Source of the DNA: Gemmatimonadales bacterium
GTDB taxonomy: Bacteria; Gemmatimonadota; Gemmatimonadetes; Gemmatimonadales; GWC2-71-9
NCBI GenBank assembly: GCA_050733215.1
Contig: JBOHSN010000007.1
Coordinates: forward strand, 3,034 to 67,033
Length of the DNA stretch: 64,000 bases
Direction of reading: 5' to 3'
Positions 3,127-57,445 of this stretch are shown here, piece by piece. The notes under the pieces are model-generated. The model made no database searches. It was not told where the DNA came from and saw nothing but the letters and a program-made list of their open reading frames with translations. Position numbers and translations under genes: made by a program. Position 1 is the first letter of the stretch; each line of letters opens with the position of its first letter.

Positions 3127-3312
3127 GGCGCCGCATCGGATTTGCCGATGCGGCGCTTTCAATTGCCCTCCTGGGCTCGAACCAGGACTCTCCTGATCCA
3201 GAGGGGCCACAGTAAGCAGCTGAATGCCAGCAACTTGCAATCATACACTCGAGCTCTTGTCACCCGCTGCTGGAGTTTTGCTGGTTTCATGCGGACTCTT
3301 GCTGTACCCCAA
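3127..3312 (-). repeat. tRNA-Gln-like repeat unit B: core 3164-3203, arm 3204-~3312, 12-bp perfect hairpin 3127-3156
   Basis: Core matches the consensus with a 1-nt deletion in the acceptor strand. The arm aligns with unit A over ~110 nt (e.g. GTCACCCGCTGCTGGAGTTTTGCTGG vs GTCCCCCGCTGCCGGAGTTTGTTGC). Confidence 0.75.
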
Positions 3313-5042: not shown

Positions 5043-5822
5043 TTAAAGCTCCGTCCGGATCGCCCAGAGGTCCGGAAACAGCGGCTGGTTCAGCGTGGCG
5101 AGCAAATAGTCCGCCCCCGCGCTTCCCCCGGTGCCGCGGCGGGTCCCGATCGTACGCTGCACCATCTTCACGTGCCGGTAGCGCCACTCCATGAGCCCTT
5201 CATCGAGATCCACCAGCCGCTCGCACAGTTCAGCCAACGCCGGTTGGGTGCGGTACACTGCGATCAGCACCTCTCGGAGGGCGGAAGAGGACTCCACCCG
5301 CCGGGTGACATCCCGCTCGAGGTCGGTCCGGGGCACCGGGACGCCGCTGGCGGCCAGGTGGTGCAGGAAGGTATCCCACAGCGAGGCGGACTTCAGGCGG
5401 TGCTCCAACCGCCGGCGGGCCTCGCTGCCGACCGGGTAGCGCTCCAGCGCCTTCGGGTGCTTCCAGCCCAGCGCGAACTCGAGCTCTCGGAACTGAAACG
5501 ACTGGAATCCGCTCCCGGCCTCCAGCCGATCCCGGAACGACAGGAACTCGAGCGGAGTCATCGTCTCCAGGATGTCGAGCTGGGCGACCATCACCTTGAG
5601 GATGGTCAGGATGCGCTTCAGCGTCTGCCGCGCGCGGGCGCCGTCGTTGCGTGAGAGCAGCTCCTGGAGGTGGTCCAGCTCGTGAAGGACCTCCTTGAAC
5701 CAAAGCTCGTACACCTGATGGATCACGATGAAGAGCATCTCGTCGTGCTCCGGTCCCTCCGACAGGGGACACTGGAGCGCGAGCAGCTCATCGATTTTCA
5801 GGTACTCGGCGTACGAAGGCAT
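5043..5822 (-). CDS. kynA: Tryptophan 2,3-dioxygenase
   Basis: 259-aa ORF with typical bacterial TDO sequence: YAEYLKIDELL, FIVIHQVYELWFK, SGFQSFQFRELEF, WRYRHVKMVQRTIG. Confidence 0.9.
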   Translation of the reverse strand: MPSYAEYLKIDELLALQCPLSEGPEHDEMLFIVIHQVYELWFKEVLHELDHLQELLSRNDGARARQTLKRILTILKVMVAQLDILETMTPLEFLSFRDRLEAGSGFQSFQFRELEFALGWKHPKALERYPVGSEARRRLEHRLKSASLWDTFLHHLAASGVPVPRTDLERDVTRRVESSSALREVLIAVYRTQPALAELCERLVDLDEGLMEWRYRHVKMVQRTIGTRRGTGGSAGADYLLATLNQPLFPDLWAIRTEL

Positions 5823-6993: not shown

Positions 6994-7539
6994 ATGGACA
7001 CCGCGCGCAACGCCATCAGTCTCCTCTCCTACTTCGTCATCCCGGTCATCCTGGTGGGCTTCCCCCTCTACGGTCTCTACAAGCGGGTTCCGGTCTACGA
7101 GAGCTTCGTCGAGGGTGCCAAGGAGGGATTTCAGGTCGCCGTCCGCATCATCCCCTACCTCGTGGCGATCCTCTTCGCCATTGCGATGTTCCGCGCCAGC
7201 GGCGCCATGGAGGCCCTGACCCAGGCACTCGATCCGGTGCTGGGCCTGATCGGCTTCCCGGCCGAGCTGCTGCCGATGGCCATCATCCGCTCCCTCTCGG
7301 GCTCGGGCTCGGCGGCGCTGGTGGTGGACATGATCAACCAGTACGGCGAGGACTCGATCCTCGTGAAGATGGCCGCCGTGATGTACGGGTCCAGCGAGAC
7401 CACCTTCTACGTGATCGCGGTGTACTTCGGGGCGGTGAACATCAGGAAGACGCGCCACGCGGTGCCGGCGGGGCTCCTCGCGGACTTCGCCGCCATGGTC
7501 ATCGCAGTCTGGACGGTGCGGCTGCTGTTCCCCGGATGA
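6994..7539 (+). CDS. spmB: Nucleoside-recognition-domain membrane protein (SpmB-like)
   Basis: 181-aa hydrophobic ORF 8 nt after spmA. Motifs IIRSLSGSGSAA and YGSSETTFYVIAVYFG. Confidence 0.75.
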   Translation: MDTARNAISLLSYFVIPVILVGFPLYGLYKRVPVYESFVEGAKEGFQVAVRIIPYLVAILFAIAMFRASGAMEALTQALDPVLGLIGFPAELLPMAIIRSLSGSGSAALVVDMINQYGEDSILVKMAAVMYGSSETTFYVIAVYFGAVNIRKTRHAVPAGLLADFAAMVIAVWTVRLLFPG

Positions 7540-7731: not shown

Positions 7732-8049
7732 CTACACCTCCAGCTTACGGATTCGGCGCGGCAGCCGAGCCTCTTCCAGCGCCAACCCTGCCCGGTCGCA
7801 CCGCGCGTCAACCAGGCACTCGAGCCGCTCGATCATCCCGTAGCCCAGCAGGACCGTGGCGTAGATGCCCAAACTGACGCCCGGATCACCCTGTTCGATC
7901 TTGTATAGAGTCGAACGCGAGATCGACGCGCGATCGGCCGCATACGCCATCGGCATCCGGCGCCGCCGCCGGAGATTCTTGAGGTCCGCGCCCAGCTTCG
8001 CGAGAGCTTGGGTGACGCGCGGCGGGAGTGGTGATCGCGCCTTTCTCAC
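7732..8049 (-). CDS. XRE-family HTH regulator (HipB/y4mF-like antitoxin type)
   Basis: HTH segment MAYAADRASISRSTLYKIEQG. GTG start overlaps the upstream ORF's stop (GTGA). No partner toxin gene downstream. Confidence 0.7.
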   Translation of the reverse strand: MRKARSPLPPRVTQALAKLGADLKNLRRRRRMPMAYAADRASISRSTLYKIEQGDPGVSLGIYATVLLGYGMIERLECLVDARCDRAGLALEEARLPRRIRKLEV

Positions 8050-9595: not shown

Positions 9596-10009
9596 TCAGG
9601 CCTTCAAGGTCACCGACTCGAGTGCGAGTTCCGATACCCGAGCGAACTCCCGCCTGTTCGTGCTCATGATCGTCAGGGAATGCGCCAGGGCGGTGGCCGC
9701 GATCCAGAGGTCGTGAGCCCCGATTAAGCGCCCCACCGCCTCCAGATCCGCCCAGAGCTTGGCGTGAACCCGAGCAGTCGTCAGATCGAGCTCGAGAATC
9801 GGAAAGGCCGCGAGCACCGCCTCCACAAAGGCGGAGCGGGTGAGGCGCCGCCTGGGAGTATCGGCGCGGTGAACACCGTGGAGCAACTCGCTCGCCGTGA
9901 TGGTGGAGAGATAGGTCAGGTCGAGCCGTCCCGCCGTGACCGCGCCCAGGTCGAGCTGGCCCCGCTCGGCCGCGATGATGATGGAGCTGTCGAGGAGAAT
10001 GCCGCTCAC
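9596..10009 (-). CDS. vapC: PIN-domain toxin VapC
   Basis: 137 aa. LLDSSIIIAAERG N-terminus and DLWIAATALAHSLTIMSTNRREF C-terminus. 4-nt overlap with the antitoxin gene. Confidence 0.9.
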   Translation of the reverse strand: MSGILLDSSIIIAAERGQLDLGAVTAGRLDLTYLSTITASELLHGVHRADTPRRRLTRSAFVEAVLAAFPILELDLTTARVHAKLWADLEAVGRLIGAHDLWIAATALAHSLTIMSTNRREFARVSELALESVTLKA

Positions 10010-10581: not shown

Positions 10582-12858
10582 CTACCGCAGGCGGGGGGTG
10601 TAGCGGTTCAGCGTCGCGTAGGACGGCGGCCAGGGGAGGGTGTGACCCAGGTCAGCGGCCGCATGCCGGGTCCAGTAGGGGTCCCACAGGTGAGCCCGCG
10701 CCAGCACCACCAGATCGGCGCGGCCAGCCGCCAGGATGGTGTTGACGTCGGCCGGCGACGAGATGTTTCCCACGGTCATCGTGGGCACCCGCGCTTCGTG
10801 CCGGATCCGATCACTGAAGGGAGTCTGGAACTGGCGGCCGTAGACCGGCTTCCCCTCAGCGACGGTCTGCCCCGCAGAGACGTCCACGATATCGGCCCCG
10901 GCGGCGACGACCATCCGGGCTACCTCCACCGCGTCGTGCGGCTCCATCCCGCCCGGCGCCCAGTCCACGGCCGAGATCCTGACAGACAGCGGTCTGGCCT
11001 GGGGCCACTCGGCGCGGACCCGGGTCACGATTTCCAGCGGGTAACGCATGCGGTTGGCCAGGGATCCACCGTACTCGTCGGTTCGCCGGTTGGTGAGGGG
11101 CGAAATGAACGAGGCCAGGAGGTACCCGTGCGCCAGGTGCAGCTCCAGCAAGTCGAACCCGGCGGCGTCGGCCATCCTGGTGGCGCGGACAAAGTCGGCG
11201 CCCACCTGGTCCATGTCGCCCCGGGTCATCTCTCTGGGCGTCTGGTTGTGGGGCCGGTAGGGGATGGGAGACGCCGCGATCAGCGGCCAGTTCCCTTTGG
11301 CCAGCGGCTCATCCTCGCCTTCCCAGGGCACCCGGGTCGAGCCTTTCCTGCCCGCGTGCGCCAGCTGGATGCCGATCTTGGCCTCGCTCTCCTGGTGCAC
11401 GAACTCCACGATCCGCTGCCACCCGCGGACGTGGTCCGGGAGATACATCCCGGTGCAGCCGGGGGAGATCCGGGCCTCGCGGCTCACGTCGGTCATCTCG
11501 GTCATCACCAACCCGGCGCCGCCGATCGCCCGGCTGGCGAGGTGCACCAGGTGCCAATCATTCGGAAGCCCGTCGTCCGCCCGGTACTGGCACATCGACG
11601 ACACCACGATCCTGTTAGGCAGCACCAGCTCTCGAAGCCGGTAGGGCGTAAACAACGGTGGAGGGGCGGGATCGACCGTCACAGGGCGCCCGCTCTGCCT
11701 GCCAGCCTGCTCGGCGAACCAGCGGTCCACCTGCATCACCAGCGCGGGATCGCGCAGCTTCAGGTTTTCGTGGGTGATGCGGAGGCTCCGGGTGAGCAGG
11801 GTGAAGGCGAACTGGAGCGGCTCGGTGTCATGGTAGCGTTCCGCCGATTCGAACCACTCGAGGCTTGCCTGGGCCGCGCGCTGGAGACTCTCCACCTGGG
11901 GCCGCCGGCCGGCCTCGTAGCTGGCGAGCGCAGCGGGAATCGATGCTTCGGTCTTGAGCGCCGCCGCCAGTGCAATGGCGTCCTCCATCGCCAGCTTGGT
12001 GCCCGAGCCCACCGAGAAGTGCGCCGTATGGGCGGCGTCGCCCAGCAGCACGACGTTCCCCGAATGCCAGCGGGCGTTCCGGACGGTGGGGAACCGCCGC
12101 CAGATGGAGCGGTTGGCCAGGAGCCGGTGGCCGTGCAACTCGTCGTTGAAAAGGTGCTCCAGGTAAGCGACCGTGGCCTGCTCGTCAGTCTCGTCGAGGC
12201 CGCTCGCCTTCCAGGTCTCCTCCCGGGCCTCGACGATGAAGGTCGAGCGACCCGGGGCATACTGGTAGGCATGGGTGCGCCAGAGCCCGACCGGCGAAGG
12301 CTTGAAGTAGAAGGTGAAAGCGGGAAAGGGACGGGTGCTGCCGAGCCAGACGAAGCGGTTCTGGCGCCAATCGAGGTGAGGTTGGAACTGATCCGACAGC
12401 CGGTCGCGGATCAGGCTGGCGGCGCCGTCGGCGGCGACGATCAGATCGGCGGCGGGAAGACCGCAGTCGGTAAGGTCTCGGATCTCCCGCTGCCAATGAA
12501 CCTCGACCCCGAGCGATTGCGCCCGTCTTGCGAGCAGCTCCAGCAGGGTCTTCCGTTCCAGTCCGGAGAAGCGATGCCCCGTCGACCGCATGACGGTGTC
12601 GCGGTAGTGGATCTCGATATCCTCCCACCGCGCCGCGGCAGCGGCCATCGCCTGGTTGGTCTCGGGATCGGCCTCGCCGACGTTCTCGAGGGTCTCGTCG
12701 GAGAACACCACTCCGAAGCCGAACGTGTCCTCGACCCGGTTCCGCTCGTAGACCGTCACCTGGTGGCGGGGGTCGTGGCACTTGAGCAGGATGGCGAGAT
12801 AGAGGCCGGCGGGCCCCGCCCCCACAATGGTGACGTTCACCTGGTGGCCGGCTCCCAC
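10582..12858 (-). CDS. Two-domain flavoprotein: FAD monooxygenase fused to OYE-type reductase (2-aminobenzoyl-CoA monooxygenase/reductase or salicylyl-CoA 5-hydroxylase type)
   Basis: 758 aa. N-terminal [14 protein letters not shown] and [23 protein letters not shown]-terminal OYE TIM-barrel motifs [26 protein letters not shown]. Confidence 0.85.
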
Positions 12859-14294
12859 GCCGGGGCCACCAGCCGCCGGCGGCCGTCGGCGGTGCGGGGC
12901 GTATCGTCCCCGTCGAGAACCAGGTGGTCCCAGAGCTTGCAGGTCACCTGCTTGTGCACCTGATCGAGGCCCTCGCAGTAGTTGGTGAAGACACAGCGCC
13001 GCACCTCTTGCCCCAAGCCCAGTCTGAGCTTCCGGAACCAGTCGGGGTCAGCCAGGCTCTGCCGGGCGGACGCGATGATGTCCGCCACGCCGGTCCGGAG
13101 CAACTCCTCGGCCTGCTCGAAGGTCGAGATGCCGCCCGATAGGACCACCGGCGTCCGGCACCCCACGGCGTGCACCGCCTCCCGCACGGCGCGGACGGCC
13201 TCCCGGTTCCGGCCGAACGGTCCTCGTTCATCCGACCGCACGGTCGGCATGCACTCGTAGCCACTGGGCCCCGTGTAGGGATAGCTGGCCCAGCCCACCC
13301 GCGGCTGCTTGGCGTCCTCGAACTTGCCCCCGCGAGAGAGCGAGAGGTAGTCCATCCGGGCCCGCGCAAACTCGGCTCCGAACCAGGCCGCATCCTCCGC
13401 GGTGTTTCCTCCCGGAATGCATTCCTCGGCCAGGAACCGGCATCCCACCACGAATCGCTGGCTCACCGCGCCTCGCACCGCGCGATAGACCTCGAGCGGC
13501 AATTTCACCCGATTCGCCCGGGACCCCCCGTAGCCATCGTCCCGCTGGTTCAGCGCGGAGAGAAACGACGCCATGGTGTAGGCGTGGGCGTAGTGCAGCT
13601 CCACTCCGTCGAACCCCGCCTCTTCGGCCCGCGCCGCCGCTCGAGCGAACAATCCCGGCAGTACCCGTGGCAGCTCCCGAATGTGCGGCAGCCCGGTATC
13701 GGTAACCCGCTCCCGCTCGCCGAATCGCACGCTCTCGAGCTCCCGCTCATCCAGAAACTCGGGCCACGCCTCCTCGGGCAATCGCGCCAGCGCCTCCCGG
13801 ATGGCGTCGTCGCTGCCTGGCAACAGCGCGCGGTGCCGGTCGGTGATACTCAAGAACTCGCGGAAGTATCGCTCCGGCTCCGGCCGGCGGCGGATCCGGA
13901 GGAAATCGATGATCTGGATGAACAGCCGAGTGCGTCCGCCGCTCGACTGACGGACGGTGCGCACCAGCTCCGCGAGGCCGGGGATGAACCGATCGTGCCC
14001 GATCCGGAGCAGCGGACCGCTGGGAATGTCCCGGATTCCGGTCGCCTCGACGACCAGCGCCCCGGGTTGTCCCCGCGCGAAACGCTCGTACCACGCCAGG
14101 ACCTCAGGGGTCACCAGCCCGTCGTCGGTAGCCCGCCAGGGCACCATGGCCGGAACCCAGGTGCGCTCGGTCAGCTCGAGCCGGCCGGAGCGGAGGGGGC
14201 TGAACCAGAGCGATCGGCCCGCCTCTTCCGCCGTGGGAGGGTGCGTCCCCGGGATGGGATGTTTGACGAAGGGGTCAGGGTGCCACATAGCCAC
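12837..14294 (-). CDS. NADH:flavin oxidoreductase (Old Yellow Enzyme family)
   Basis: 485 aa. [25 protein letters not shown] motif. Overlaps the downstream monooxygenase/reductase gene by 22 nt. Codons ~24-48 are duplicated at 19188-19263. Confidence 0.85.
14149..14224. repeat. Direct repeat copy 1 (inside the OYE 5' coding region)
   Basis: 76 nt with 3 mismatches to 19188-19263, followed by ~20 nt of weaker similarity. Confidence 0.9.
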
Positions 14295-14546
14295 ATGCGC
14301 ATCAGATGCGGGCCATCATCCTAGCGCCCGCACAAACATTAGTTCTGCAACGTTCCTCAACGCACGGTCCCGCCTAAGCGGAGCTTGGGGCACTCCCGCC
14401 AGTCGGCTGAATGCGCGGTTAGGCTGCAGCCCCACTTGCCAAGTCAGGTCGGGCTCTGGGGCGGCAGTCCGGCAGGACGCGAAAGATACTCGTCTACAGC
14501 GGCCTGCCCAGCCGGAGTAAGCGGGCGCCCCCGTGAGGTCGGTAGT

Positions 14547-16178
14547 TCAACTCCTCGCCCCCTCGGTCGCCCGGATGAGCCCAGGCAGGAGGCAAAGACG
14601 GAGGGTCAGCCACCACAGATACATCACCGGCCACGCGTAGAACTCCCCGTCGTTCATGAGTCCGTGCGCCATCCGATTTCGAATGTTCCCGCCAGCTGGC
14701 TCCACCGTCAGTCCCTGAAGCGCGAACACTACGTCCTCTCCCAGCACCTCCTTCAGACGCGGCAGGTAGAGGAGCTTGTTGAGACCGAACTCCGGCTGCA
14801 GACCGTACCGGTCCAAGCCGGAAACCCTCTCCCCCACTCGTTGTAGAAGCACACGGATGGCATGCTCGACCTGCGGCGCCAAGAGATGCGTTGCCTGAAC
14901 CGGATCTCCATAGAACCCCGCCACCAGCCCGTCGGCAAAGAGCCGTTCTCGTCCCCGCGGGACCAACTGGTTGAACTCCAGCAGTGGGAGAAGATCACCC
15001 GCTGCGAGCGGGTGATCGCTCAGAATCTGACGCCGCATGGGATCGATGATCATTTGTGGCAATGTGTCATGGTATTGTGCCGCGAGAGCGAGCATTTCCA
15101 TTCGCAGCGCGGCCTCGCGTTCGGATGGATCATCCGACGCCAGCGAAGCCTGACGGGCCACGACTTTCCCTTCGGTGCTGAAGAAGACCTTCGGAAAGAG
15201 CGACATCAGGAGGTACTGCTTGGCGTGTTCCTCGGACGTCTCCCTGAGCCGAGCGACAGTCGGAACCGGCGGGTAATTCGCGAAGACGAGCAGAGCTTCG
15301 AGCGCCTCCGCTACGTATGCCTCGGCGACCGCCAGCAGATGTGAGCGCTGCTCCTCCGGGTCCTTGGCTCGACCGGCCCACTCGGCCGCTAACGCCCAGT
15401 ATTCACGGGCGCGATGGAATTCCTTGATCCCGAGGGCACGCTGAGCAATGTCGGCGGCCATCGTGGCGTACCGTGCGCCGTCTTCCGTCCTCATTTCCAG
15501 CAGCAGGCGCATCAGCTTGGCGCAGAGGAAGCCTGTGTCCACCGGGGCCAACCGGGCGAGCAGCTCCTGGATGAACCCCACGACTCGCCGCAGCTCCTCG
15601 TTCCCACGACCGAGCTGCAGGGCGATGATTAGGGCGCGCTGCAGGGCCGGAAACTCCTCAGGCCACCCCCCGGGGTCGATCTGGTCAGCGAGGCTCAGGT
15701 ACGCGGTCACCGCGACCTTTGCCGCGCGATGGGCCCGGATCCGCACCCAAGCCACGTCGCCCAATCGGGCTCGAACGCGCGGGTCAGCCGTGTTCTCCGC
15801 CAGCTCGGAGAAAGTCTCGACCGCTTCCTGGCTCAAGTCCTCGATGCCGCCTGTTCGAAAGCCCTGGGTCACCATCCACGGGGTGAACGGATCGTTGGGA
15901 CGATCGACGCGAAACCCAAGGGAACAGACGTCGGCGAGGCTTTGGAAGACTGCAGCCGTGACGTTGTCGCCAGCACCCGCGGCGTGGCGCGCTTCCTCGC
16001 CGAAACGGCCTGCGAGCTCGTACAGCCGGCGGAACGGCGCCCTTGCTACGATCGCTTGCCAGTCGACGGTCGCGAAGTCGGCGAAGGTCGGTCGTGGCAT
16101 CGGGTCGGTGCGGTCGTCCGCGGTGCCTGGATTGGGAGCGGACATGTCAACTTCGACCTTTCCGGGTAGGGCAACCAT
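14547..16178 (-). CDS. Large hypothetical protein with C-terminal HEPN-like Rx4H motif (DUF4209-like)
   Basis: 543 aa, mostly alpha-helical by composition. GGNIRNRMAHG is encoded at 14664-14693. An alternative ATG lies at 16145. Confidence 0.6.
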   Translation of the reverse strand: MVALPGKVEVDMSAPNPGTADDRTDPMPRPTFADFATVDWQAIVARAPFRRLYELAGRFGEEARHAAGAGDNVTAAVFQSLADVCSLGFRVDRPNDPFTPWMVTQGFRTGGIEDLSQEAVETFSELAENTADPRVRARLGDVAWVRIRAHRAAKVAVTAYLSLADQIDPGGWPEEFPALQRALIIALQLGRGNEELRRVVGFIQELLARLAPVDTGFLCAKLMRLLLEMRTEDGARYATMAADIAQRALGIKEFHRAREYWALAAEWAGRAKDPEEQRSHLLAVAEAYVAEALEALLVFANYPPVPTVARLRETSEEHAKQYLLMSLFPKVFFSTEGKVVARQASLASDDPSEREAALRMEMLALAAQYHDTLPQMIIDPMRRQILSDHPLAAGDLLPLLEFNQLVPRGRERLFADGLVAGFYGDPVQATHLLAPQVEHAIRVLLQRVGERVSGLDRYGLQPEFGLNKLLYLPRLKEVLGEDVVFALQGLTVEPAGGNIRNRMAHGLMNDGEFYAWPVMYLWWLTLRLCLLPGLIRATEGARS

Positions 16179-16248
16179 GATCCCGAGTAGGGTGATTAAG
16201 TTGTAACATGACTTGGGCTTGCGGCCCCAGGGCCAAGCCTTGCGATGG

Positions 16249-16262
16249 CCATAGATCTATGG
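16249..16262. promoter_or_regulatory. Candidate operator in the divergent promoter region
   Basis: Perfect 14-bp palindrome CCATAGATCTATGG in the AT-rich 130-bp spacer between the HEPN-like gene and the Xre-RES operon. Confidence 0.45.
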
Positions 16263-16309
16263 TATATTAACGGTAACTAACAGCAGGATATACCGCTAAG
16301 CTGGAGTAT

Positions 16310-17116
16310 ATGATGCCCCCAGCCAAGAAACCACTCCCCGACGCGGTCGCTAGCGGCGTGGATGCGCTTGCCACCCTGGTCGCCGAACGCAGCAAGTCGG
16401 CCGAGAGTCCCAGTGGCGTGTGGTTCAAGCTGCCCAAGCATCCCGCTCGTCTGGCAAAAGGCGAGTTGCTCATCGCGGTCATCGAGGACAATGCGGTCGT
16501 AGTGCGCACCGTGCGCAGACCCCCCGGGCTCAGAGTCGGAGGCTGGTCCAACGCCGTTCGCGCGAGCTACGTCGCCCAGCGCCTCGGGGATATCGAGACC
16601 ACGGTGGGCCAGGTCCTGAATGCGGCCCTCGGCGGGGCGTCTGAATCGAGTGTCCTGACGGAGGACGAGGAACGCGTTCTAGCCTCGGGCGATTTGGACA
16701 CTTCATCGCTCCCGGTGGAGGATGCAGAGCCGATCACCCGGGCCGCACTCGAGTATGCGCACCTGCTTCAATCCAGCCTAAGCGTCGACGAAGCCGCGAA
16801 ACGGCTGGACGTGGACCCCAGCCGAATCCGGCAGCGTCTCGCCGGTGAATCGCGTACTCTGTATGGGGTGAAAGAGGGGAAGAGCTGGCGACTGCCGCGA
16901 TTTCAGTTCGCCGGACGAAAACCGGTGCCGGGAGTCGACCGGGTCATTGCGGCGCTTCCGGCGGATCTGCATCCCGTCGCGGTGTGGCGGTGGTTCACGA
17001 CTCCGCATCCCGACTTGTGCGCGGACGCCGAGGAGGAGCAGCCGATCTCGCCCCTCGACTGGCTGCGAACCGGACGGCCGCCGGAAGTAGTCGCGGAAAT
17101 CGCCCGCGGGGCCTGA
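16310..17116 (+). CDS. Xre-like antitoxin of a RES toxin (HTH + toxin-binding domain) with ~120-aa N-terminal extension
   Basis: C-terminal half SLSVDEAAKRLDVDPSRIRQRL...WRLPRFQF...HPVAVWRWFTTPHPDL matches the Xre/MbcA/ParS antitoxin architecture. A RES gene follows 13 nt downstream. Confidence 0.75.
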   Translation: MMPPAKKPLPDAVASGVDALATLVAERSKSAESPSGVWFKLPKHPARLAKGELLIAVIEDNAVVVRTVRRPPGLRVGGWSNAVRASYVAQRLGDIETTVGQVLNAALGGASESSVLTEDEERVLASGDLDTSSLPVEDAEPITRAALEYAHLLQSSLSVDEAAKRLDVDPSRIRQRLAGESRTLYGVKEGKSWRLPRFQFAGRKPVPGVDRVIAALPADLHPVAVWRWFTTPHPDLCADAEEEQPISPLDWLRTGRPPEVVAEIARGA

Positions 17117-17129
17117 GTCGCCGCTGGCG

Positions 17130-17756
17130 GTGGCCAAGTTTCCCGAGCCGCCTTCGGTGGCCACGCTCGCCGCGGTTCATCCGGACCGTGCTGTCGTCCC
17201 CCAGAGCACTAGGCTCTGGCGAATCTACTTTGCCGGGGGTGCTTACCCCGTCGCCTGGAATGCCTTTCGGGATTTCGGTCCTACGAACAGCCGGTTCGAC
17301 CATCATCTCCCACCAAGCGCGGTACAGGACCGGGGCATTCTCTACGCGGCTACAAACGGAATGACGCCGTTCGCGGAGGTCTTTCAGGAGACCCGCGTGA
17401 TCGACCGGCGCCGAAACGCACCCTGGTTGGTGGCGTTCGATTTGGGCCGGCCGCTCGAGCTCCTCGATCTCACCGATAGCTGGCCGACTCGCGCGGGGGC
17501 ATCCATGGCCATCAATTCCGGGCCACGGCCCAAAGCCCGCCGGTGGTCGCAACGGATCTACGAGGCGTACCCGACGATCGAGGGCCTGTCGTATCCCTCC
17601 TCCATGGACGGCAACCGTCCCGCCGTGGCGCTGTACGAGCGGGCGCTGGACGCCTTGCCCGCGCGGCCCGTTTTCCACCGGGCGCTTGCGGACCCGGCAC
17701 TTTCGGTCGCCGTGATTCGGGCTGCGCGGAGGTTTGGCTATGCCGTCGTGGGATGA
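17130..17756 (+). CDS. RES-domain toxin (MbcT/ParT-like)
   Basis: 208 aa, GTG start. R/E/S signature positions in NSRFDHH, TPFAEVF and LSYPSSMDG. Confidence 0.8.
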   Translation: MAKFPEPPSVATLAAVHPDRAVVPQSTRLWRIYFAGGAYPVAWNAFRDFGPTNSRFDHHLPPSAVQDRGILYAATNGMTPFAEVFQETRVIDRRRNAPWLVAFDLGRPLELLDLTDSWPTRAGASMAINSGPRPKARRWSQRIYEAYPTIEGLSYPSSMDGNRPAVALYERALDALPARPVFHRALADPALSVAVIRAARRFGYAVVG

Positions 17757-18302
17757 CCTGATTCTACTCCCCGCTCACGACCGGGTCCACCGATTGCTGA
17801 CGCTTCAGCACTCATAGGCGCGCCCGCTTCCAGCGCTGGCTCATCTCGATCACTCCGTCCCGACACGTCTGCGCGATAACTGCTGCCGCTGTGAAGGGGG
17901 CCGAGGGCGAGGCGACCTGAGAGGCCGTAGAGTATTGGGCCACAATGCGAGTTCGCACACGCAGTCGTGGCCTGAAATCGGGAAGGGAGCGTCGTTGCGC
18001 TCACCGTTCGAGTTCATGGTGCAGATGGGGCGAATAGGTGTCGGCTGCTAGCGGTAGGAGCCTAGCCTGTTCGCATACTGCCGACGAGAACCGGAACAGC
18101 ATCTTGAGTCGGCGTATTTTGCCACGAGAATACTCCTACCTCTAAGCGCGCTTCCCTGATGGCATTCGCCGGCTCGGAAAAGATCCGGAAGCGAAATGGA
18201 TGGTTTCTTATTTGCGCAACCGAGGGCCAAGGCTGAACGGATAGGACAGGGCACCAGCCTGACTAACACTCCTAGGACATCGTAAGCGCGAGCGGTACCG
18301 TC

Positions 18303-19016
18303 ATGGCTGTCAAGGTGAATCCGATGAAACTGGGCGGCAATTGGGCAGTGCGCTTTGGTGTTGGGTCGCGCGACGGCCCGAAGTCTGGCGTGTGGCGGAG
18401 GTGGACACCTGCACGCAAGAGCGATGTGTATATCGCGATCCGCTCATACACAGGTATCATGAAGGTCAGCCTACACGAGTCAGGGGAGTGCTTTGTCGCC
18501 CTAACCGAGCAGTTCGCCGAGCGCAATCCCACAGCCCTCGTCGGGAGGTCGCGGCGATTCGATCAGTGGAAGAGGGTCACTCATGCCGGCTCCCAACTGT
18601 GAGTAGGCTTTAGGCTCGCGTTCCCCGGAAACGAGCTGCGCCTGTTCCGTTCTCCAGATGATCAGGACGACAAAGTCAAGTGGATCGATGCTCCCCCGAG
18701 CGACTACTCTGTCGAAGTGGGCTGCATTTTCACTGGTCAGTGCTATTCGAGCGACGAGTGGCCGCTCAGACGGCAAGGTATCCATCTGCTCGACTGGACG
18801 TTGCTACCAAACGGTGAGGTGTTCTGGGTCCTCTTCACAGTGCATCCGACCTTCCGGTTCGTCGAGGCTACAGTGCGTCGGACACAAGAAGAGATGCGGG
18901 GGCCATGCGCCGTTACGATTGGCGATCTGGACTTGGATTCTCCCAGCGCCAGGATCGTAGTCCCTGGCATTGACTCTTCAGGGGTACGCGTGTTCACGGA
19001 TGTCGCTTTTACATAG
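18303..19016 (+). pseudogene. Low-GC orphan ORF (238 codons) interrupted by a single in-frame TGA at 18600-18602
   Basis: Track ORFs 18303..18602 and 18717..19016 are in the same frame, with no other stop between them. No recognisable domain. GC is visibly lower than the surroundings. Confidence 0.5.
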
Positions 19017-19054
19017 CACGATTGCGGGACCCTGACCTGGCTCTGCAGCAGCAA

Positions 19055-19690
19055 TCAGACGGGCCGCTCCGACTTCCGAATCCAAACGGGTTGGTCAGGT
19101 TTCCGCCTCCAGGTGCGCAACTGAGCGGCCGTAAGCTCCCGCACTTCTACCAGCGGTTCGGGGTCGCTCGATGCTCTGCGCAGCAAGGCCGGAACCCAGG
19201 TGCGCTCGGTCAGCTCGAGCCGGCCCGAGCGGAGGGGGCTGAACCAGAGCGACCGGGCCGCCTGATCCGGCGGAGGGTTCACCAGGCAGATCCACGCATA
19301 GCTGCCTGCCTCCAGGTACTGTGTCGCGTTTGACTCGCCGTGCGGGTCGGCCACGCCTGGGCCGCCGAGCCGCTTTGCCCACTCCGGCCGTGGACCGACC
19401 GTGCGGAACGCTTCGCTGTACGCCTGGAGGAAGTCGTCCAATGTCCTGCCGCCCTCGAGCTTGATCAGCTGCGCCATGTGGAACTGTTCGCTGTTGTTCA
19501 CCATGCGGAAGGTGGTGAACCCTGCCGGGATCGTGTCAGGTGCCTCGAACGCGTAATCGATGGCGGTCAAGATGACCACGGTCGGGGCGGCGGCCGCGTT
19601 GGGGTGAGGCGCCTCATTACCCGCCGTGCAGGCGGCGACCAATGCGACGATCGCGATCAGCGGGGCAGGGGTGGTGGAGTGTGCAGACAT
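19055..19690 (-). CDS. Secreted lipoprotein (cupredoxin-like hypothetical) with a chimeric C-terminus
   Basis: Signal/lipobox LIAIVALVAAC. After ...AWICLVNPPPD the ORF runs into the duplicated OYE segment and unrelated sequence, so the native 3' end appears to be lost. Confidence 0.5.
   Translation of the reverse strand: MSAHSTTPAPLIAIVALVAACTAGNEAPHPNAAAAPTVVILTAIDYAFEAPDTIPAGFTTFRMVNNSEQFHMAQLIKLEGGRTLDDFLQAYSEAFRTVGPRPEWAKRLGGPGVADPHGESNATQYLEAGSYAWICLVNPPPDQAARSLWFSPLRSGRLELTERTWVPALLRRASSDPEPLVEVRELTAAQLRTWRRKPDQPVWIRKSERPV
19188..19263. repeat. Direct repeat copy 2 (displaced fragment of the OYE 5' region)
   Basis: 76 nt with 3 mismatches to 14149-14224. Encodes [24 protein letters not shown], as in the OYE N-terminus. 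Confidence 0.9.
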
Positions 19691-19783
19691 GGCGGTCCTC
19701 CTTCAGTGAAGGAGCCCTTATTCTGGGGCGTACAACCTGACACAAAGTGCAACAGCGTGTCATGCCGTGTCGCTTTCATCAGC

Positions 19784-20782
19784 TCACTTTCCGTGGTGCC
19801 TCGCGATCTCGTCCTTGCTGAGCCGGAGAAAGCGAGCAGCGTTGTCGTAGAAGATGTCGCGCTTCTGCTCCTCACTCAGGAACGGCGCCTTCTCGACGAT
19901 CGCGATGGCGGGCTCGATAACCCCCGGCCAGTTCATCTGGTCCGAACCGAACATCACCCGCTTCTCGAACCCGGCATCGATGAGCCTCTCGAGCTGCCCG
20001 TAGAAGTACGCTCGGGGGTAGAACCACTGGATCCCACCGATGTCGACGTACAGCTGGGGGTAGGCTCCGAGCATCGCGATCATCTCGTCGATCAGGGGGG
20101 ACCCGTAGTGCATCACGGAGACGCGCAGCCGGGGATGACGAATCAACACTTCCTCCAGCAGATATGGGCTCGTCAACCGGGCGCGGTACGTCGGAATAAG
20201 GTAGGCCGCTCCGGGCGGCCCCTCGCCCATGTGGATGGCGACCGGCACGTCGAGCGCCTCCGCCAGGGCCCAGTACGGCTCCATCCGTTCGTCGTCGGGT
20301 GCGATCCCAACGTATTGGTTTGACACCTCGCCAAAGATGGCGAAGGGCCCGTCCTTGAACAGGCGACGCAGCGAGTCCGGGGACATCTCGTCACGGCCAA
20401 GCTGAAACTGAATGCTGGGAATGAACCGACCCGGCGCTGGCTTGTACCACCGGCGCACACGTTCTGGCGTGCCGCTCAAGACTCCGATGATATTGCGCCG
20501 CTCTAGAACGGCGATCGTTTGCTCCATGACCGCCTCGTCAGTCATGGGTGACCAGATGGGATCGGAGCACGGAGGATCCTTCGCCACTGCGCTGAAGACG
20601 CCCCTGTTCGGATCCAGAGGGGGAGCATGAGGCAGAAGGGGCACGCACAGACCCAGGGGTGGTGGCCCGTTCCCGTCCGCGGGCGAGGCGTGCAGGTGCA
20701 TCTCGATGATTGGAAGACGCTGCTGCGCGCGTGCGTGAGGCGGCACGAGTAGGAGGGCCAGCCCGAGTACGAGCAGTCTCAT
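19784..20782 (-). CDS. Secreted amidohydrolase-family (amidohydrolase_2-like) metal hydrolase
   Basis: 332 aa. Signal peptide MRLLVLGLALLLVPPHARA. IIEMHLHA metal motif and a C-terminal FGSDQ...FYDNAARFL pattern. Confidence 0.7.
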   Translation of the reverse strand: MRLLVLGLALLLVPPHARAQQRLPIIEMHLHASPADGNGPPPLGLCVPLLPHAPPLDPNRGVFSAVAKDPPCSDPIWSPMTDEAVMEQTIAVLERRNIIGVLSGTPERVRRWYKPAPGRFIPSIQFQLGRDEMSPDSLRRLFKDGPFAIFGEVSNQYVGIAPDDERMEPYWALAEALDVPVAIHMGEGPPGAAYLIPTYRARLTSPYLLEEVLIRHPRLRVSVMHYGSPLIDEMIAMLGAYPQLYVDIGGIQWFYPRAYFYGQLERLIDAGFEKRVMFGSDQMNWPGVIEPAIAIVEKAPFLSEEQKRDIFYDNAARFLRLSKDEIARHHGK

Positions 20783-20991
20783 GATCGTCCCAGCTGTCGA
20801 GTCAGGCCGCGGGGAGAATGGTCAGCGGCATAACGAAATGCAGATCAGCTGCAAGCTCTCAAGCTCGCGCCCGCACAAGTGTACGTTTCATTGACCGCCA
20901 CCGATGAGCCGTGCCCACGCGGAACTCGTCACGGTCCGGCTTGTCAGCTGCAATTGCGGGTTAGACGCCAAGCCGGCGCGATCTGGGCTAA

Positions 20992-21348
20992 TTAGGCAGC
21001 GGTTGGCGACTTGCCCGCCCGGCGCAGCGCCGGGAGCCGCTTGATCTGCCGGATCCGCCGGGCCTCGGGCGAGCGGCTCGCCTGGTAGAGATCCCAGGCC
21101 ATCTGGAGGTTCAGCCAGAACTGGGCCTCCATCCCGAACAGTTGCTCCAGACGGAGCGCCGTGTCCGGCGTGACGCCGCGCTTGCCATGAATCAGTTCGT
21201 TCACCCGGGGATAAGAGACCCCGAGACGCTCGGCCAATTCCCGCTGGGTAAGGGCGAGGGGCTTGAGGAATTCCTCGAGCAGCATCTGCCCGGGGTGTGT
21301 GGGAGGTCGATTGGTGGGAATTCGCACCATGCTAGACCCCTTTGTCAC
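20992..21348 (-). CDS. higA: HigA-family antitoxin (XRE HTH)
   Basis: HPGQMLLEEFLKPLALTQRELAERLGVSYPRVNELIHGKRGVTPDTALRL is a canonical HigA sequence. Confidence 0.9.
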   Translation of the reverse strand: MTKGSSMVRIPTNRPPTHPGQMLLEEFLKPLALTQRELAERLGVSYPRVNELIHGKRGVTPDTALRLEQLFGMEAQFWLNLQMAWDLYQASRSPEARRIRQIKRLPALRRAGKSPTAA

Positions 21349-21350
21349 GC

Positions 21351-21644
21351 TCAGTGGTAATCGGCGATCTCGACATCTGCCGGCCCGGCATCTGTCCAGT
21401 CGAAGCAGATGCGGAGTTGGTCGTTGATCCGGATACTAAACTGTCCGGCTCGGTCTCCCTTCAGGGACTCCAGGCGATTGCCCGGTGGGACTCGAAGCGA
21501 GACCAAGCTCACCGCGGCATTCAGCAGGTCGAGCTTGCGCCGGGCGATTGCCCAGAGACTCGACGGGCACGCACGCCTGGCGGCCTTGGTGTCGCGACCA
21601 TGAAAGACGTCCTCCGTGCCAGCATCGGCAAAGGTGACGATCAC
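21351..21644 (-). CDS. higB: HigB-family toxin (RelE/ParE superfamily)
   Basis: 97 aa. LESLKGDRAGQFSIRINDQLRICFDW motif. Lies immediately upstream of higA. Confidence 0.9.
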   Translation of the reverse strand: MIVTFADAGTEDVFHGRDTKAARRACPSSLWAIARRKLDLLNAAVSLVSLRVPPGNRLESLKGDRAGQFSIRINDQLRICFDWTDAGPADVEIADYH

Positions 21645-21729
21645 CGGCGCCGCGGCGTCCAGGTCATGCCGGGAATATAACGGATAGCGTTACACGTGCT
21701 AGGCCCCGACCCCACGGGTCGGCCTGACG

Positions 21730-22872
21730 TTACTTGAGCAACTCCCCCGCGATGATCAACTGCTGGATCTCCGTCGTCCCCTCGTAAATCCGGAGCGCCC
21801 GTACCGCGCGGTACAGCCGGTCCACCGGGTGAGCGGCCAGCACTCCCCGTCCGCCGATAAGCTGCACCGCGTCGTCCACCGCCCGCTGGGCCATCTCCGT
21901 GGCGAAGGACTTGGCCATGGCCGCTTCACTCGTGATCCGTTCCTGGCCCTGGTCCTTCTCATACGCCGCCCGATAGGTCAAGAGCCGGGCGGCCGTAAGA
22001 TCTGTGGCCATTCGCGCGAGCTTCTGCTGCACCAGTTGGAACTTCGCCAGCGGCGTCCCGAACTGCTCCCGCTGCTTCACGTGGGCCAGCGACTCGGCGA
22101 GCGCGCGCGCGGCCATCCCGCAGGCCGCGGCGGCCACCGTGGGCCTCAACCGGTCGAGGGTCGCGAGGCCGAGCCCGTAGCCGCGTCCCTCGGTGCCCAA
22201 CAGCGCATCGGCCGGAACCCGGCAATCTTCGAACGCGATCTCCCCCAACGGATGCGGGGCACTCAGCACCTGCGGACCTGCGAACCGAAGCCCCGGGCTA
22301 TCAGCCGGTACCAGGAAGCAACTGATTCCCTTGGCACCCTTGGCTCGGTCGGTGGAGGCGAACACGATGTAGAGATCGGCGATGCCCGCGTTGGAGATCA
22401 GGGTCTTGGTCCCATCGAGTACGTATCCCGCTCCGTCGCGCCGCGCGGTGGTGCTGATGCCGGCCACGTCCGACCCTGCCTCGGACTCGGTCATCGCGAA
22501 GGCGGTCATCACCTTTCCCTGGGCGATCGGCCCGAGCCAACGGTCCTTCTGGGCAGGCGAGCCGCCCAACAGAATCGGCGTGGTGCCCAGCCCCTGCAGG
22601 GCGAACACCGCGTCGGCGAGCGGTGACGCTGCTGCGAGCGCCTCGCGCATCAGGCAGCACCCGCGGACATCTAGATCGAGAATCGGCTGGAGCCAGCCCC
22701 CCGCCCCCCCACCGAGCAGCCCAAGCAGGGCCCGCGCCTCCCTCCGGGCGTCGGCGTCTTCGACAGGTTCAGGGCGCTTGGCGATCTCGCCCATCGCGAG
22801 GCCGCTGGCCCGCTCGGCGAGCGCTGTGTGATGCGGTTCGAGAAAGGTGCGGATCAGTCTCGTGTCCGGCAT
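21730..22872 (-). CDS. Acyl-CoA dehydrogenase
   Basis: 380 aa. [24 protein letters not shown] and a [18 protein letters not shown]-terminus. Confidence 0.9.
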
Positions 22873-24356: not shown

Positions 24357-25538
24357 TCATCTGCCGAGCACCGCGGTCGCTTCGATCTCCACCACCGCCT
24401 CTGGGTCCACCAACGACTTCACCTCCACCAGCGCCATCGCCGGGTAGTGCGTCCCCATCCGGCGCCGGTACACCTCGCCCAACGGCTTGAGGCTGGCGCG
24501 GTACTGCGCCATGTCGGTGACATAGATCGTGAATCGCCCGATGTCCCCCGGCTCGCCGCCGGCCTGGCGGAGCACGACAAGCACGTTGCCCAACGCCCGG
24601 TCGAACTGGCTGACGAAATCAGCGGCCGGCACTCGACCCGAGCCGTCGCGCGCGGTCTGCCCCGCGATGAAGAGCGTCCTGACCCCCGCCGGCGCCAGCA
24701 TCCCGTGGTTCCACCCTCGGGGCGCGCCGAGCTCCTCGGGGTTGACGATCGCGAAGCGGCTGCTCATCGGGTCTCTCCCGTCCAGGACCAGGGTCTCCCC
24801 ATTGGGGGGATCGGTGACAGCAGCGGCCGAGAGCGACACCACCGCCGCCGCCACCTCCGCCGCCGAGATCAGCCGAGTCTGGCCCTCCGAAGCGAGGGCC
24901 GCCGCCAGCGCCTCTTCCCGGGTGCGGCCGGTCTTGGCCACGATCCGGGCCACGGTCTCGGCGGTCATCTCGGTATCCACGAAGCCGGGGCACACCGCGT
25001 TCACCGTGACGCCGGTGCCCGCCACCTCCGCAGCCGCCGACCGGGTGAGACCCACCAGCGCATGCTTGGCCGCGGAGTAGGCCGCGAGATACTTGCCGCC
25101 TCGGAGCCCCGCCGTCGAAGCCACATTGACCACCCTGCCCCACCGCCGCTCGAGCATTCCTGGAAGAAAGGCGCGGGTGCAGAGGAAAGCGCCGGTGGCG
25201 TTGACGGCCATGAGGCGGTTCCACTCGTCGAGCGAGGTCCGGACGACGGGCATCGACGCGGCGGCGCCGGCGTTGTTGACCAGCACCGCAACCGGTCCCA
25301 GCTCGGCGGCTTCGCGGGAGAGGTTCTCCACGCTCGCTTCGCTGGTCACGTCGCAGACCACCGCCTTTGACTCATGCCCCAGCGCCACCAGCTCGGCGGT
25401 CTGCCGCTCGATCTGGTCTCGATTGCGGGCGGCGACCACCACACCGAGACCGGCGTCCGCAAGCGCTCGGGCGGTCGCAGCTCCAATCCCCCGGCCGGCT
25501 CCAGTCACCACCGCCACCCGACCGGCCAGGGGATTCAT
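24357..25538 (-). CDS. Fusion protein: short-chain dehydrogenase/reductase + RidA (YjgF/L-PSP) domain
   Basis: N-terminal VVTGAGRGIGAA...YSAAKHAL. C-terminal ~125 aa (IAGQTARDG...RFTIYVTDM...PAMALVEVKSLV...VEIEATAV) is typical of RidA. Confidence 0.85.
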   Translation of the reverse strand: MNPLAGRVAVVTGAGRGIGAATARALADAGLGVVVAARNRDQIERQTAELVALGHESKAVVCDVTSEASVENLSREAAELGPVAVLVNNAGAAASMPVVRTSLDEWNRLMAVNATGAFLCTRAFLPGMLERRWGRVVNVASTAGLRGGKYLAAYSAAKHALVGLTRSAAAEVAGTGVTVNAVCPGFVDTEMTAETVARIVAKTGRTREEALAAALASEGQTRLISAAEVAAAVVSLSAAAVTDPPNGETLVLDGRDPMSSRFAIVNPEELGAPRGWNHGMLAPAGVRTLFIAGQTARDGSGRVPAADFVSQFDRALGNVLVVLRQAGGEPGDIGRFTIYVTDMAQYRASLKPLGEVYRRRMGTHYPAMALVEVKSLVDPEAVVEIEATAVLGR

Positions 25539-31617: not shown

Positions 31618-31648
31618 ATGATCCCGAATTAGCCCCTCACCCCAGCAT

Positions 31649-31689
31649 TGCCCCTCCTGGGCTCGAACCAGGACTCTCCTGATCCAGAG
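31649..31689 (-). repeat. tRNA-Gln-like repeat C (core only)
   Basis: Exact 41-nt consensus core, 20 nt downstream of the stop of the cupin gene at 31710. Confidence 0.85.
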
Positions 31690-47262: not shown

Positions 47263-47455
47263 TGCCCCCTCCTGGGCTCGATCCGAAGGCCACGCAGCGG
47301 CCGAAGGACGAGACCAAACAAAACGCCCACGGTTGTTCACCGTGGGCATTGCCCCTCCTGGGCTCGAACCAGGACTCTCCTGATCCAGAGTCGTACCGCT
47401 GGGGTAGCGGTTCCGGCCAAGTTGCCCGGAAACGGTCACTTGCCGAGCATCGGTG
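47263..47455 (-). repeat. Composite tRNA-like locus D: T-loop-type fragment (47263-47302), hairpin+T-run (47325-47347), full core D2 (47350-47390), arm (47391-~47455)
   Basis: D2 is the exact 41-nt core. The segment 47286-47347 is homologous to 1646-1709. Confidence 0.8.
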
Positions 47456-57013: not shown

Positions 57014-57338
57014 GTATTCGAGACGGCGCAAGAGCGAGCGCCGGCCAAGCTGCGCGCCGAGGGACTGAAGTGGGTTCTGGGCAGTATGCCGATCGCAGTG
57101 AAGCGGGAAGACGATGCCTCGACAGCTTCCTTGGACAGTAGCCACGGCCCTTGAACGCATGAACCTGAACCGCCGTCAGCTCATTACCAGCACGCCGATG
57201 AGGCCGCGATGCTGAAAGTGATGGAGTCGCCGGTCCGGCTGGTGAGCCATCGCGCGAACGGCGCACTGGAGAAACGGTAGCAGTGGGCGCAGAAATGAGC
57301 AGGCCCGACACCACCGAAGTAGCGTTGGGCCTTCGAGT

Positions 57339-57445
57339 TGCCCCTCCTGGGCTCGACCAGGACTCTCCTGATCCAGAGGGGCGGCTGCAATCACGTGAAC
57401 TCCACCAACTTGCAGCCATTCACGCGAGTTGGCGGAGACGCCGGC
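57339..57445 (-). repeat. tRNA-Gln-like repeat E: core 57339-57378 + arm
   Basis: Core with a 1-nt deletion in the T loop. The arm shares CAACTTGCA..CA.TCACGCGAG with units A and B. Lies ~110 nt downstream of the stop of the SDR gene at 57489. Confidence 0.8.

Follow-up and report, generated by a model that had tools for sequence, protein, structure and literature searches.

The window analysed here is a 64,000-nt stretch of contig JBOHSN010000007.1 (assembly GCA_050733215.1, Gemmatimonadales bacterium), in which a block of accessory genes separates the gene of an OYE-family flavin oxidoreductase from the acyl-CoA dehydrogenase (ACAD) gene of the same operon. A first-pass annotation of the sequence had reported there an islet of ~5 kb bounded by a duplicated segment of the OYE gene. 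Comparison with relatives showed that the insert is longer (14291–21727) and that its ends are attC-type junctions of the kind formed by integron cassettes, the duplication lying in its interior.

The host operon and the extent of the insert

The OYE gene (12837–14288, minus strand; Pfam Oxidored_FMN) is intact and shares 80–89% amino acid identity over its full length with its counterparts in Gemmatimonadales relatives; its true start is the ATG at 14288, matching homologues that begin with MWHPDPF. The OYE relatives found among 80 reference genomes place the source organism in the Gemmatimonadales, and the gene order enoyl-CoA hydratase, ACAD, OYE and a bifunctional salicylyl-CoA 5-hydroxylase-type gene (ACMR) is conserved; the host locus is a Gemmatimonadales aromatic-acid degradation operon. 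In the window, the ACMR gene, of the salicylyl-CoA 5-hydroxylase/oxidoreductase type (10582–12858, minus strand; NCBIfam NF006101, 1109.7 bits, cutoff 1078), lies downstream of OYE, and the ACAD gene, which is the upstream neighbour of OYE in relatives, occupies 21730–22872 on the minus strand. The gap between ACAD and OYE is only 0–25 nt in many relatives (L004, L005, L009, L011, L025 and others, where L numbers denote the sequences compared with the window), and in L001, L003 and L012 it is variable, without DNA similar to the islet. The comparison thus delimited the whole inserted block, which runs for 7,437 nt from the ACAD stop to the OYE start (14291–21727, minus strand), and the earlier view that accessory genes sit within a conserved operon was borne out by the abutting ACAD and OYE genes of the relatives. 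The OYE–ACMR pair is severed by these 7.4 kb, including genes on the opposite strand, from the upstream genes of the operon, and neither a sigma-70-like promoter nor an intrinsic terminator was found upstream of OYE.

Both ends of the block can be placed exactly. The left end is located one base past the ACAD stop (AAGTAAC-G|TCAGGCC) and carries an attC R′ half-site, G|TCAGGC, while the right end reads GCGCATGTG-G|CT-ATGTGGCAC, where the G is that of the R′ box of the site attC2 described below, 2 nt before the ATG of OYE. Excision of the block in silico leaves TAA-CGCT-ATG between the two genes, and the relative L005 has TAG-CGC-ATG. Besides the genes listed in the first-pass annotation, the 7.4-kb block contains a HigB/HigA gene pair and an amidohydrolase gene, and its G+C content is reduced. 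The low-GC DNA noted previously between the two copies of the OYE segment was seen again in a GC profile, with a G+C content of 0.58–0.60 at 17.8–19.2 kb compared with 0.68–0.71 in the operon.

A second public assembly, L081, has an identical architecture and islet, with one single-nucleotide polymorphism (SNP) outside its contig end. When window positions 12007–12225 were compared with L081, 23 of 24 differences proved to be clustered in the last 230 nt of the L081 contig, mostly at multiples-of-three spacing, which suggests a strain-variant contig end.

The attC sites and the HigBA cassette

Starting from a weak second repeat (D2, 20829–20964), a 33-nt motif was recognized that is present in 87 contigs of soil metagenomes. 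D2 had been a candidate for an older scar of the OYE 5′-end, and was rejected as such because the metagenome copies run into GTTAGGC, not into OYE; it corresponds to the site called attC1 here. Alignment of 56 copies revealed a 148-nt element in which an R″ box (GCCTAAC) and an R′ box (GTTAGGC) pair with each other, and which also has an unpaired spacer and a second stem. The five R-box pairs are kept in 53–56 of the 56 sequences. The L″/L′ stem GCGCAT/ATGCGC, with one bulged base in its left arm, alternates with GCAAAT/ATTTGC, and two adjacent pairs of this stem show compensatory exchanges (GC to AU and back in 19/56, CG to AU and back in 18/56). A covariance model, R1, built from the 56 aligned copies gave 262 matches on 80 contigs in 240 kb of soil contigs, all on a single strand within each contig, and the spacing of the sites in these arrays had a median of 612 nt (interquartile range 526–857). 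Integron integrase (intI) genes were located directly upstream of the first attC in L120 and L173; positions 4051–4707 of L173, adjoining a five-site array, scored 313.9 bits on TIGR02249 (cutoff 265). The intI genes of L120 (2828–3534) and L173 (4051–5029) are oriented as the cassettes are and both are frameshifted, that of L120 being truncated as well. Considering these features, the 148-nt repeat is identified by its sequence as an integron attC family.

The window contains exactly two full-length matches to R1, both on the minus strand, and everything else in it remained at or below 14 bits. The first site, attC1 (20824–20970), scored 113.6 bits (E 2.5e-24) and has the boxes R″ GTCTAAC and R′ GTTATGC, one base off the canonical RYYYAAC ... 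GTTRRRY. The second, attC2 (14281–14428), scored 92.8 bits (E 1.3e-19); its R″ box is GCCTAAC, and its R′ box, GCTATGT, is non-canonical and fits a hybrid between an attC and its target. In the set of 80 reference genomes, the 148-nt family was found near OYE only in L082 and L083. [quoted passage not shown]

It could be argued that the 148-nt repeats are dispersed elements unrelated to integrons, of the MITE or REP type, and that the block grew without an integrase, as the missing intI in the window and the non-significant folds of single sequences might suggest. This is hardly credible in view of the canonical R″/R′ cores and the covariation in the L boxes, the one-strand arrays with spacing of cassette size and the IntI genes at the array heads, to which the exact limits of the HigBA unit have to be added, as its homology begins and ends precisely at R′ cores.

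This unit, cassette 1 (20834–21727, minus strand, 894 nt), consists of higB, higA and attC1, and recurs in L148, L139 and L144. The higB gene (21351–21644, minus strand; Pfam HigB-like_toxin PF05015, E 2e-15) precedes higA (20992–21348, minus strand; Pfam HTH_3 PF01381, E 2e-10) with a gap of 2 nt, which is the layout of a HigBA type II toxin–antitoxin module. In the three arrays the unit lies between consecutive attC sites and shares 89–92% amino acid and 81–85% nucleotide identity with that of the window. The homology starts at the R′ core, at nucleotide 2 of the cassette, upstream of which the window has ACAD and the arrays have an attC; it stops directly past the R′ core of attC1, beyond which all four sequences differ. 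HigBA with attC1 is thus an intact, genuine cassette. A palindrome, ATAACGCTAnCCGTTAT, is kept just upstream of higB in all copies (window 21660–21700, L139 ~7455–7480, L148 ~1600–1625, and L144), and probably serves the cassette itself as operator or promoter.

The mosaic interior and the OYE relic

The remainder of the block formally constitutes a second cassette of 6,543 nt (14291–20833, minus strand), which starts with TTATGCC after attC1 and ends with attC2, and its interior is a mosaic. An Amidohydrolase_2 gene of 332 aa (19784–20782, minus strand; PF04909, E 1e-40), whose product has a signal-peptide-like N-terminus, starts 51 nt into this cassette. A breakpoint at ~19753 separates it from the 5′ part of a lipoprotein gene (19264–19753, minus strand), consisting of 63 nt of upstream sequence and codons 1 to ~143, with 91% nucleotide identity to positions 7940–8427 of L082. 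The next segments are the OYE relic and the fusion ORF discussed below, followed by a pseudogene on the opposite strand (18303–19016, plus strand) of ~237 codons, which belongs to a family of ~232-aa proteins. Its frame is continuous except for one in-frame stop at 18600–18602, and the low-GC orphan ORF annotated earlier at 18303–18602 turned out to be its first part. Intact homologues are 232–247 aa long and match it with 94–97% query coverage and ~60% identity; the family has no match in Pfam, NCBIfam or PADLOC.

A non-coding stretch of 546 nt lies between the pseudogene and a three-gene block (14554–17760, mixed strands) that has ~90% nucleotide identity to L084. It comprises a RES toxin gene (17130–17756, plus strand; PF08808, E 7e-12), its 268-aa HTH partner (16310–17116, plus strand) and the gene of a 543-aa DUF7380–DUF4209 protein (14547–16178, minus strand), which matches PADLOC PDC-S39, a candidate defence system (E 4e-138), in two separate stretches. 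The RES assignment of the pair described in the first-pass annotation as Xre–RES stood, and the pair is conserved with L084, while "Xre" rests on weak, sub-threshold HTH matches (E ~0.01). The 543-aa protein had been described as bearing a HEPN motif, and the Rx4H motif was indeed found near its C-terminus (...NIRNRMAHG...). Its activity is doubtful because ~228 nt near 15300 (76 aa, in frame) that are present in all homologues are missing from the window gene. Distant homologues of the DUF4209 protein sit among defence-type genes, and a metagenome scan for close relatives found nothing. In L084, the three-gene block has a MacB-type permease gene as its neighbour, and the homology to the window reaches as far as the outer stop codons. 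These islet genes thus co-occur elsewhere as a block of their own, and the 4.9-kb segment between the repeat copies is a mosaic. No attC of the 148-nt family was found beside the L084 block or the homologues of the pseudogene. The last 123 nt between the three-gene block and attC2 could not be assigned. Of the interior genes, three carry damage, namely the lipoprotein gene by truncation, the pseudogene by its internal stop and the PDC-S39 gene by the 76-aa deletion. The breakpoints of cassette 2 are observed, and the order of the events behind them is our reconstruction.

The proximal copy of the OYE repeat (14141–14224, minus strand) lies, as originally described, inside the intact OYE gene, where it covers codons ~22–50. 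The distal copy (19180–19263, minus strand) is an 84-nt relic of the same codons with 5 mismatches. Re-counting of the 76-nt core (14149–14224 versus 19188–19263) reproduced the three mismatches reported before; the longest exact run shared is 39 nt, and the ungapped match can be extended to 93 nt at 91% identity (14141–14233 versus 19180–19272). The local alignment score of the two copies is 149, whereas 500 dinucleotide shuffles averaged 18.9 and reached 36 at most (z = 42). The relic shows ~91% identity to OYE in both L003 and L082, and in a comparison with ~30 relatives its similarity to OYE stopped sharply at 19180–19188. The ~20 nt of weaker similarity formerly added to the repeat do not belong to it, since 19264–19278 is lipoprotein gene sequence, resembling OYE only through an imperfect microhomology.

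The relic is in frame within the ORF 19055–19690, and the claim that it is fused to a lipoprotein gene lacking its native 3′-end was confirmed: full-length homologues are ~287 aa long with two cupredoxin-like halves, and they match residues 1 to ~143 of the window ORF. The lipoprotein is cut after ...CLVNPPPD, so that its predicted metal site lacks the His/Met and the entire second domain is lost. The last 42 codons of the fusion ORF (19055–19179, minus strand) come from DNA that flanks the opposite-strand pseudogene on its 3′ side, and they resemble neither OYE nor the lipoprotein homologues. The 211-aa "lipoprotein" ORF should be annotated as a chimeric pseudogene. At the junction with the lipoprotein gene (19263/19264), native lipoprotein sequence runs through AACCCTCCGCCGGATC and is followed by the OYE sequence AGGCGGCCCGGTCG, with the imperfect microhomology CCGCCGGA/CCGCGGAG at the join. 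The tail-side join (19179/19180) shows a slight microhomology, ATGGTGCC versus TTGCTGCG (TGGTGC/TGCTGC). The relic thus represents a fragment with two illegitimate junctions, each defined to the base, inside a larger islet, and it is without function.

The possibility was considered that 19180–19263 is a chimera, that is, a misjoin of strains or loci in a metagenome assembly. The MAG-like character of the window and the strain heterogeneity at the L081 contig end (23 SNPs in 230 nt) speak for it, but the copies share no exact run beyond 39 nt, each junction is embedded in unique sequence, its imperfect microhomology of 15 nt or less would not suffice to lead an assembler astray, and the identical fusion ORF is present on two public contigs of 69,447 and 55,064 nt. 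An assembly artefact is accordingly next to negligible as an explanation.

The state preceding the relic is indicated by L082, which is ~92% identical to the window in OYE–ACMR and has a full-length lipoprotein gene 51 nt upstream of OYE; a relative with an intact lipoprotein gene next to OYE, for which the first-pass annotation had proposed to look, thus exists. This adjacency implies that the window state derives from such an arrangement and not the reverse. In more distant relatives, the lipoprotein gene occurs in ordinary chromosomal contexts, and no attC site of the 148-nt family was found beside native lipoprotein genes. In L082 (5981–6243) and L083 (1–340 and 3030–3130), OYE 5′ pieces are joined to ACAD 3′ pieces in reversed order, which yields tandem-like units of ACAD 3′-end, cargo and OYE 5′-end. 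The stranded OYE pieces comprise codons 1–15 and 1–17 and are connected through 3–4 nt of microhomology to ACAD pieces of 167 and 48 nt, after which R′-type half-sites (G|TTAGAAC and G|TTGGGC) and different cargo follow; in L082 an attC site stands just before one of the OYE pieces. The population thus joins ACAD–cargo–OYE versions head to tail repeatedly, at varying OYE positions. In L082, gene calling gave 620 aa for OYE and 518 aa for the hydroxylase, pointing to frameshifts in a long-read assembly.

The varying junction positions argue against a site-specific event in OYE, as had been proposed by the first-pass annotation. According to that model, an element of ~5 kb integrated site-specifically into the OYE 5′-end, the 76–93-nt repeat would represent attL and attR, and the element supplied OYE with a new N-terminus and promoter. 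It accounts for a direct repeat flanking accessory genes, for the adjacency of the lipoprotein gene and OYE in L082, and for the sequence upstream of the intact OYE gene, which is not the ancestral 3′-end of ACAD. It is nevertheless very improbable. The absence of a recombinase gene, which had been noted from the outset, was verified, as no integrase or recombinase domain was found in the islet proteins and no IntI-like sequence in the window. Moreover, the repeat is 91% identical with a fuzzy edge that is really lipoprotein sequence, the distal copy is preceded by codon 143 of another gene instead of the OYE start, the core block of the mosaic interior is present in L084 without its companions, other OYE 5′ junctions lie at codons ~15 and ~17 in L082/L083, and the attC-type ends of the insert are situated 2.5 kb past the distal copy.

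Origin of the block and comparison with known systems

Considering these results, we concluded, with a probability of roughly 0.7, that the 7.4-kb block consists of integron cassettes and captured defence genes lodged between two operon genes, and that the OYE repeat is a recombination scar. As the anatomy of the block suggests, an integrase encoded elsewhere would have introduced a circle of several cassettes at the 4-nt gap that separates the ACAD stop from the OYE start, by recombination of an attC with a genomic site, the target being TAACGCTATG. Such a reaction would keep the R′ remainder G|TCAGGC at the left junction and produce the hybrid R′ of attC2 (G|CT) at the right one, and the attC2 R′ box of the circle would read GTCAGGC, a variant that also occurs in several array copies of the family. 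The DNA between attC1 and attC2 may then have been remodelled by illegitimate, microhomology-guided recombination, which would have brought the amidohydrolase gene, the lipoprotein gene, the pseudogene and the RES/Xre/PDC-S39 block into cassette 2. HigBA and RES/Xre may stabilize the block.

The OYE repeat would be a by-product of one of these remodelling events. DNA of a related strain with the order defence block–attC2–OYE might have recombined homologously within OYE/ACMR, its other end joining the OYE gene of the recipient illegitimately at codon ~50. If the recipient was L082-like, with the lipoprotein gene beside OYE, this join would leave a stranded OYE 5′-end (codons 1–50), and a later deletion of ~546 nt at the microhomology CCTCCGCCGGA / CCACCGCGGAG would remove the 3′ half of the lipoprotein gene together with OYE codons 1–21. 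The passage from an L082-like site to the window takes at least two steps, insertion and the ~546-nt deletion. A one-sided homologous event followed by this deletion is the favoured route to the relic; no identity step was found in OYE–ACMR in comparisons with L082 and three other relatives, and the flat identity of OYE leaves the homologous-anchor step unproven.

A serious, if rather unlikely, alternative is a single template-switching or filler-DNA event, in which, during repair or replication of the DNA from the lipoprotein gene to the defence block, a microhomology jump to the resident OYE gene, the copying of 84 nt and a second jump would have deleted the 3′ half of the lipoprotein gene and left a templated patch. 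It dispenses with a second OYE allele and a separate deletion, and it agrees with the short imperfect microhomologies at both relic junctions, the small size of a patch (84 nt) with its template 5 kb off, and the lack of a mosaic in OYE. On the other hand, the relic differs from the resident gene at 5 of 84 positions, and at two sites it has the common allele of the relatives (AARS, not AGRS), which fits a different source allele or considerable age. In addition, the lipoprotein–OYE adjacency seen in L082 is used directly by the two-step route, and stranded OYE 5′-ends recur in L082 and L083.

Several observations weigh against an origin of the block by cassette insertion and of the repeat by the two-step route. 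The boxes of both window attC sites are imperfect, and when folded singly as DNA the sites do not outperform shuffled sequences (z −1.0 to 0). The 64-kb window is devoid of IntI-like sequence, the distance between attC1 and attC2 is 6.4 kb, and the presumed target G|CT departs from the GWT consensus reported for IntI1. The interior genes of cassette 2, including the amidohydrolase gene, were not found as cassettes in the sampled arrays. No OYE mosaic was detected against L082, the identity being 0.89–0.93 in every 150-nt bin. By a by-eye count, the resident OYE and the OYE genes of relatives are equally distant from the relic, with 3–4 differences each in the 76-nt core; its source is therefore not assignable, and an attempt to attribute it to the resident gene or a foreign allele failed on this equidistance over 84 nt. 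Finally, L081, which outside its contig end differs by a single SNP, does not qualify as a truly independent strain, and the contigs L082 and L083 belong to a metagenome that was assembled from long reads and shows apparent frameshifts.

CALIN and SALIN are well documented, and IntegronFinder clusters attC sites within 4 kb by default (Cury et al. 2016, PMC4889954). The IntI-catalysed entry of cassettes into genomic sites other than att ("attG") and later imprecise events have also been described (Loot et al., bioRxiv 10.1101/2022.09.11.507474; PMC4889954), and integrons of Gemmatimonadota are already on record, toxin–antitoxin cassettes being among the commonest types (PMC8618304). The window resembles such clusters in having attC sites without a nearby intI, an insert that starts with an R′ remainder and ends with a target-hybrid attC R′, an intergenic landing site beside a transcribed gene, a toxin–antitoxin cassette and, as reported there, later imprecise genome changes. 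It differs in the 6.4-kb distance of its sites, which exceeds the 4-kb default, in its target (GCT, not GWT) and in its second "cassette", which measures 6.5 kb, has genes on both strands and includes genes seen elsewhere without attC. The locus thus belongs to a known kind, a group of cassettes located away from an integron, whose later growth is unusual: what sets it apart is the precision of landing in a 4-nt gap, the attC unit grown to 6.5 kb by non-cassette genes, and the scars that record this growth.

Sedentary chromosomal integrons, such as the Vibrio superintegron with its VCR sites, are comparable with respect to the homogeneous attC family of ~148 nt, the arrays of ~0.6-kb cassettes, the toxin–antitoxin cassettes with their own operator-like palindrome, and the integrase heading the array (L120, L173). 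In contrast to them, the arrays are known here from soil metagenome contigs, with the window as their sole link to the Gemmatimonadales, the intI genes of both contigs are frameshifted and oriented as the cassettes are, and the window has just two sites and no integrase.

In homology-facilitated illegitimate recombination, known from Acinetobacter and Streptococcus, a one-sided homologous anchor is combined with a microhomology join. The relic shares with it the foreign DNA beside a conserved gene, the short G+C-rich microhomology join and the partial duplication of the anchor gene; however, the anchor crossover is invisible in OYE and an additional deletion is needed. Integrative elements that target gene ends likewise leave a partial-gene direct repeat flanking accessory genes and an intact gene, but the window lacks an integrase, the repeat lies away from the insert ends, the junctions are illegitimate and the position of the OYE junction varies.

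The locus offers a clear natural example of cassette insertion away from an integron, in a soil phylum that has received little study, with base-resolved boundaries and an array copy as reference, and it indicates that inserted cassettes can be a seed for the accretion of toxin–antitoxin and candidate phage-defence genes through illegitimate recombination, leaving datable scars such as the OYE relic. A more speculative reading, which we consider improbable, is that cassette genesis or enlargement is in progress here: the 6.5-kb attC1–attC2 unit would perhaps be an IntI-excisable giant cassette, and the gap between ACAD and OYE a recurrent landing pad at which units of ACAD 3′-end, cargo and OYE 5′-end stack as in L082/L083. 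If the attC-bounded unit were mobilizable, it would bear on how new integron cassettes arise.

Some further features of the operon and the window are worth recording. An extra 0.9–1.1 kb is present between OYE and the salicylyl-CoA hydroxylase gene in L003 (11443–12317), L004 (11449–12320) and L009 (11470–12555), two genes that overlap or abut in the window, and this gap is a second variable spot of the operon. Tandem heptamers (GCTGACG/GCTGACC or CGCCTAA-like) lie directly before the OYE start in L006 (~9940–10000), L008 (~5520–5580) and L014 (~2810–2870). Upstream of the hydratase gene, window positions 24357–25538 (by the L081 gene calls) encode short-chain dehydrogenase domains together with a Ribonuc_L-PSP (RidA-like) domain, and some relatives have an additional partial paralogue beside this gene. 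No tRNA gene was detected in the window by ARAGORN, and Rfam gave nothing there at gathering thresholds. Four copies of a 39–42-nt sequence, TTGCCCCTCCTGGGCTCGAACCAGGACTCTCCTGATCCAGAG, are found in the same orientation at 3161–3199, 31647–31685, 47348–47386 and 57328–57374 of the window, and also at L085 426–464 and L086 1–30. Its reverse complement, for which neither ARAGORN nor Rfam reported a match in the window, resembles the 3′ half of a tRNA (T-arm and acceptor end), and the copies may be remnants of att-type sites left by tRNA-targeting islands, or else a repeat of tRNA origin.

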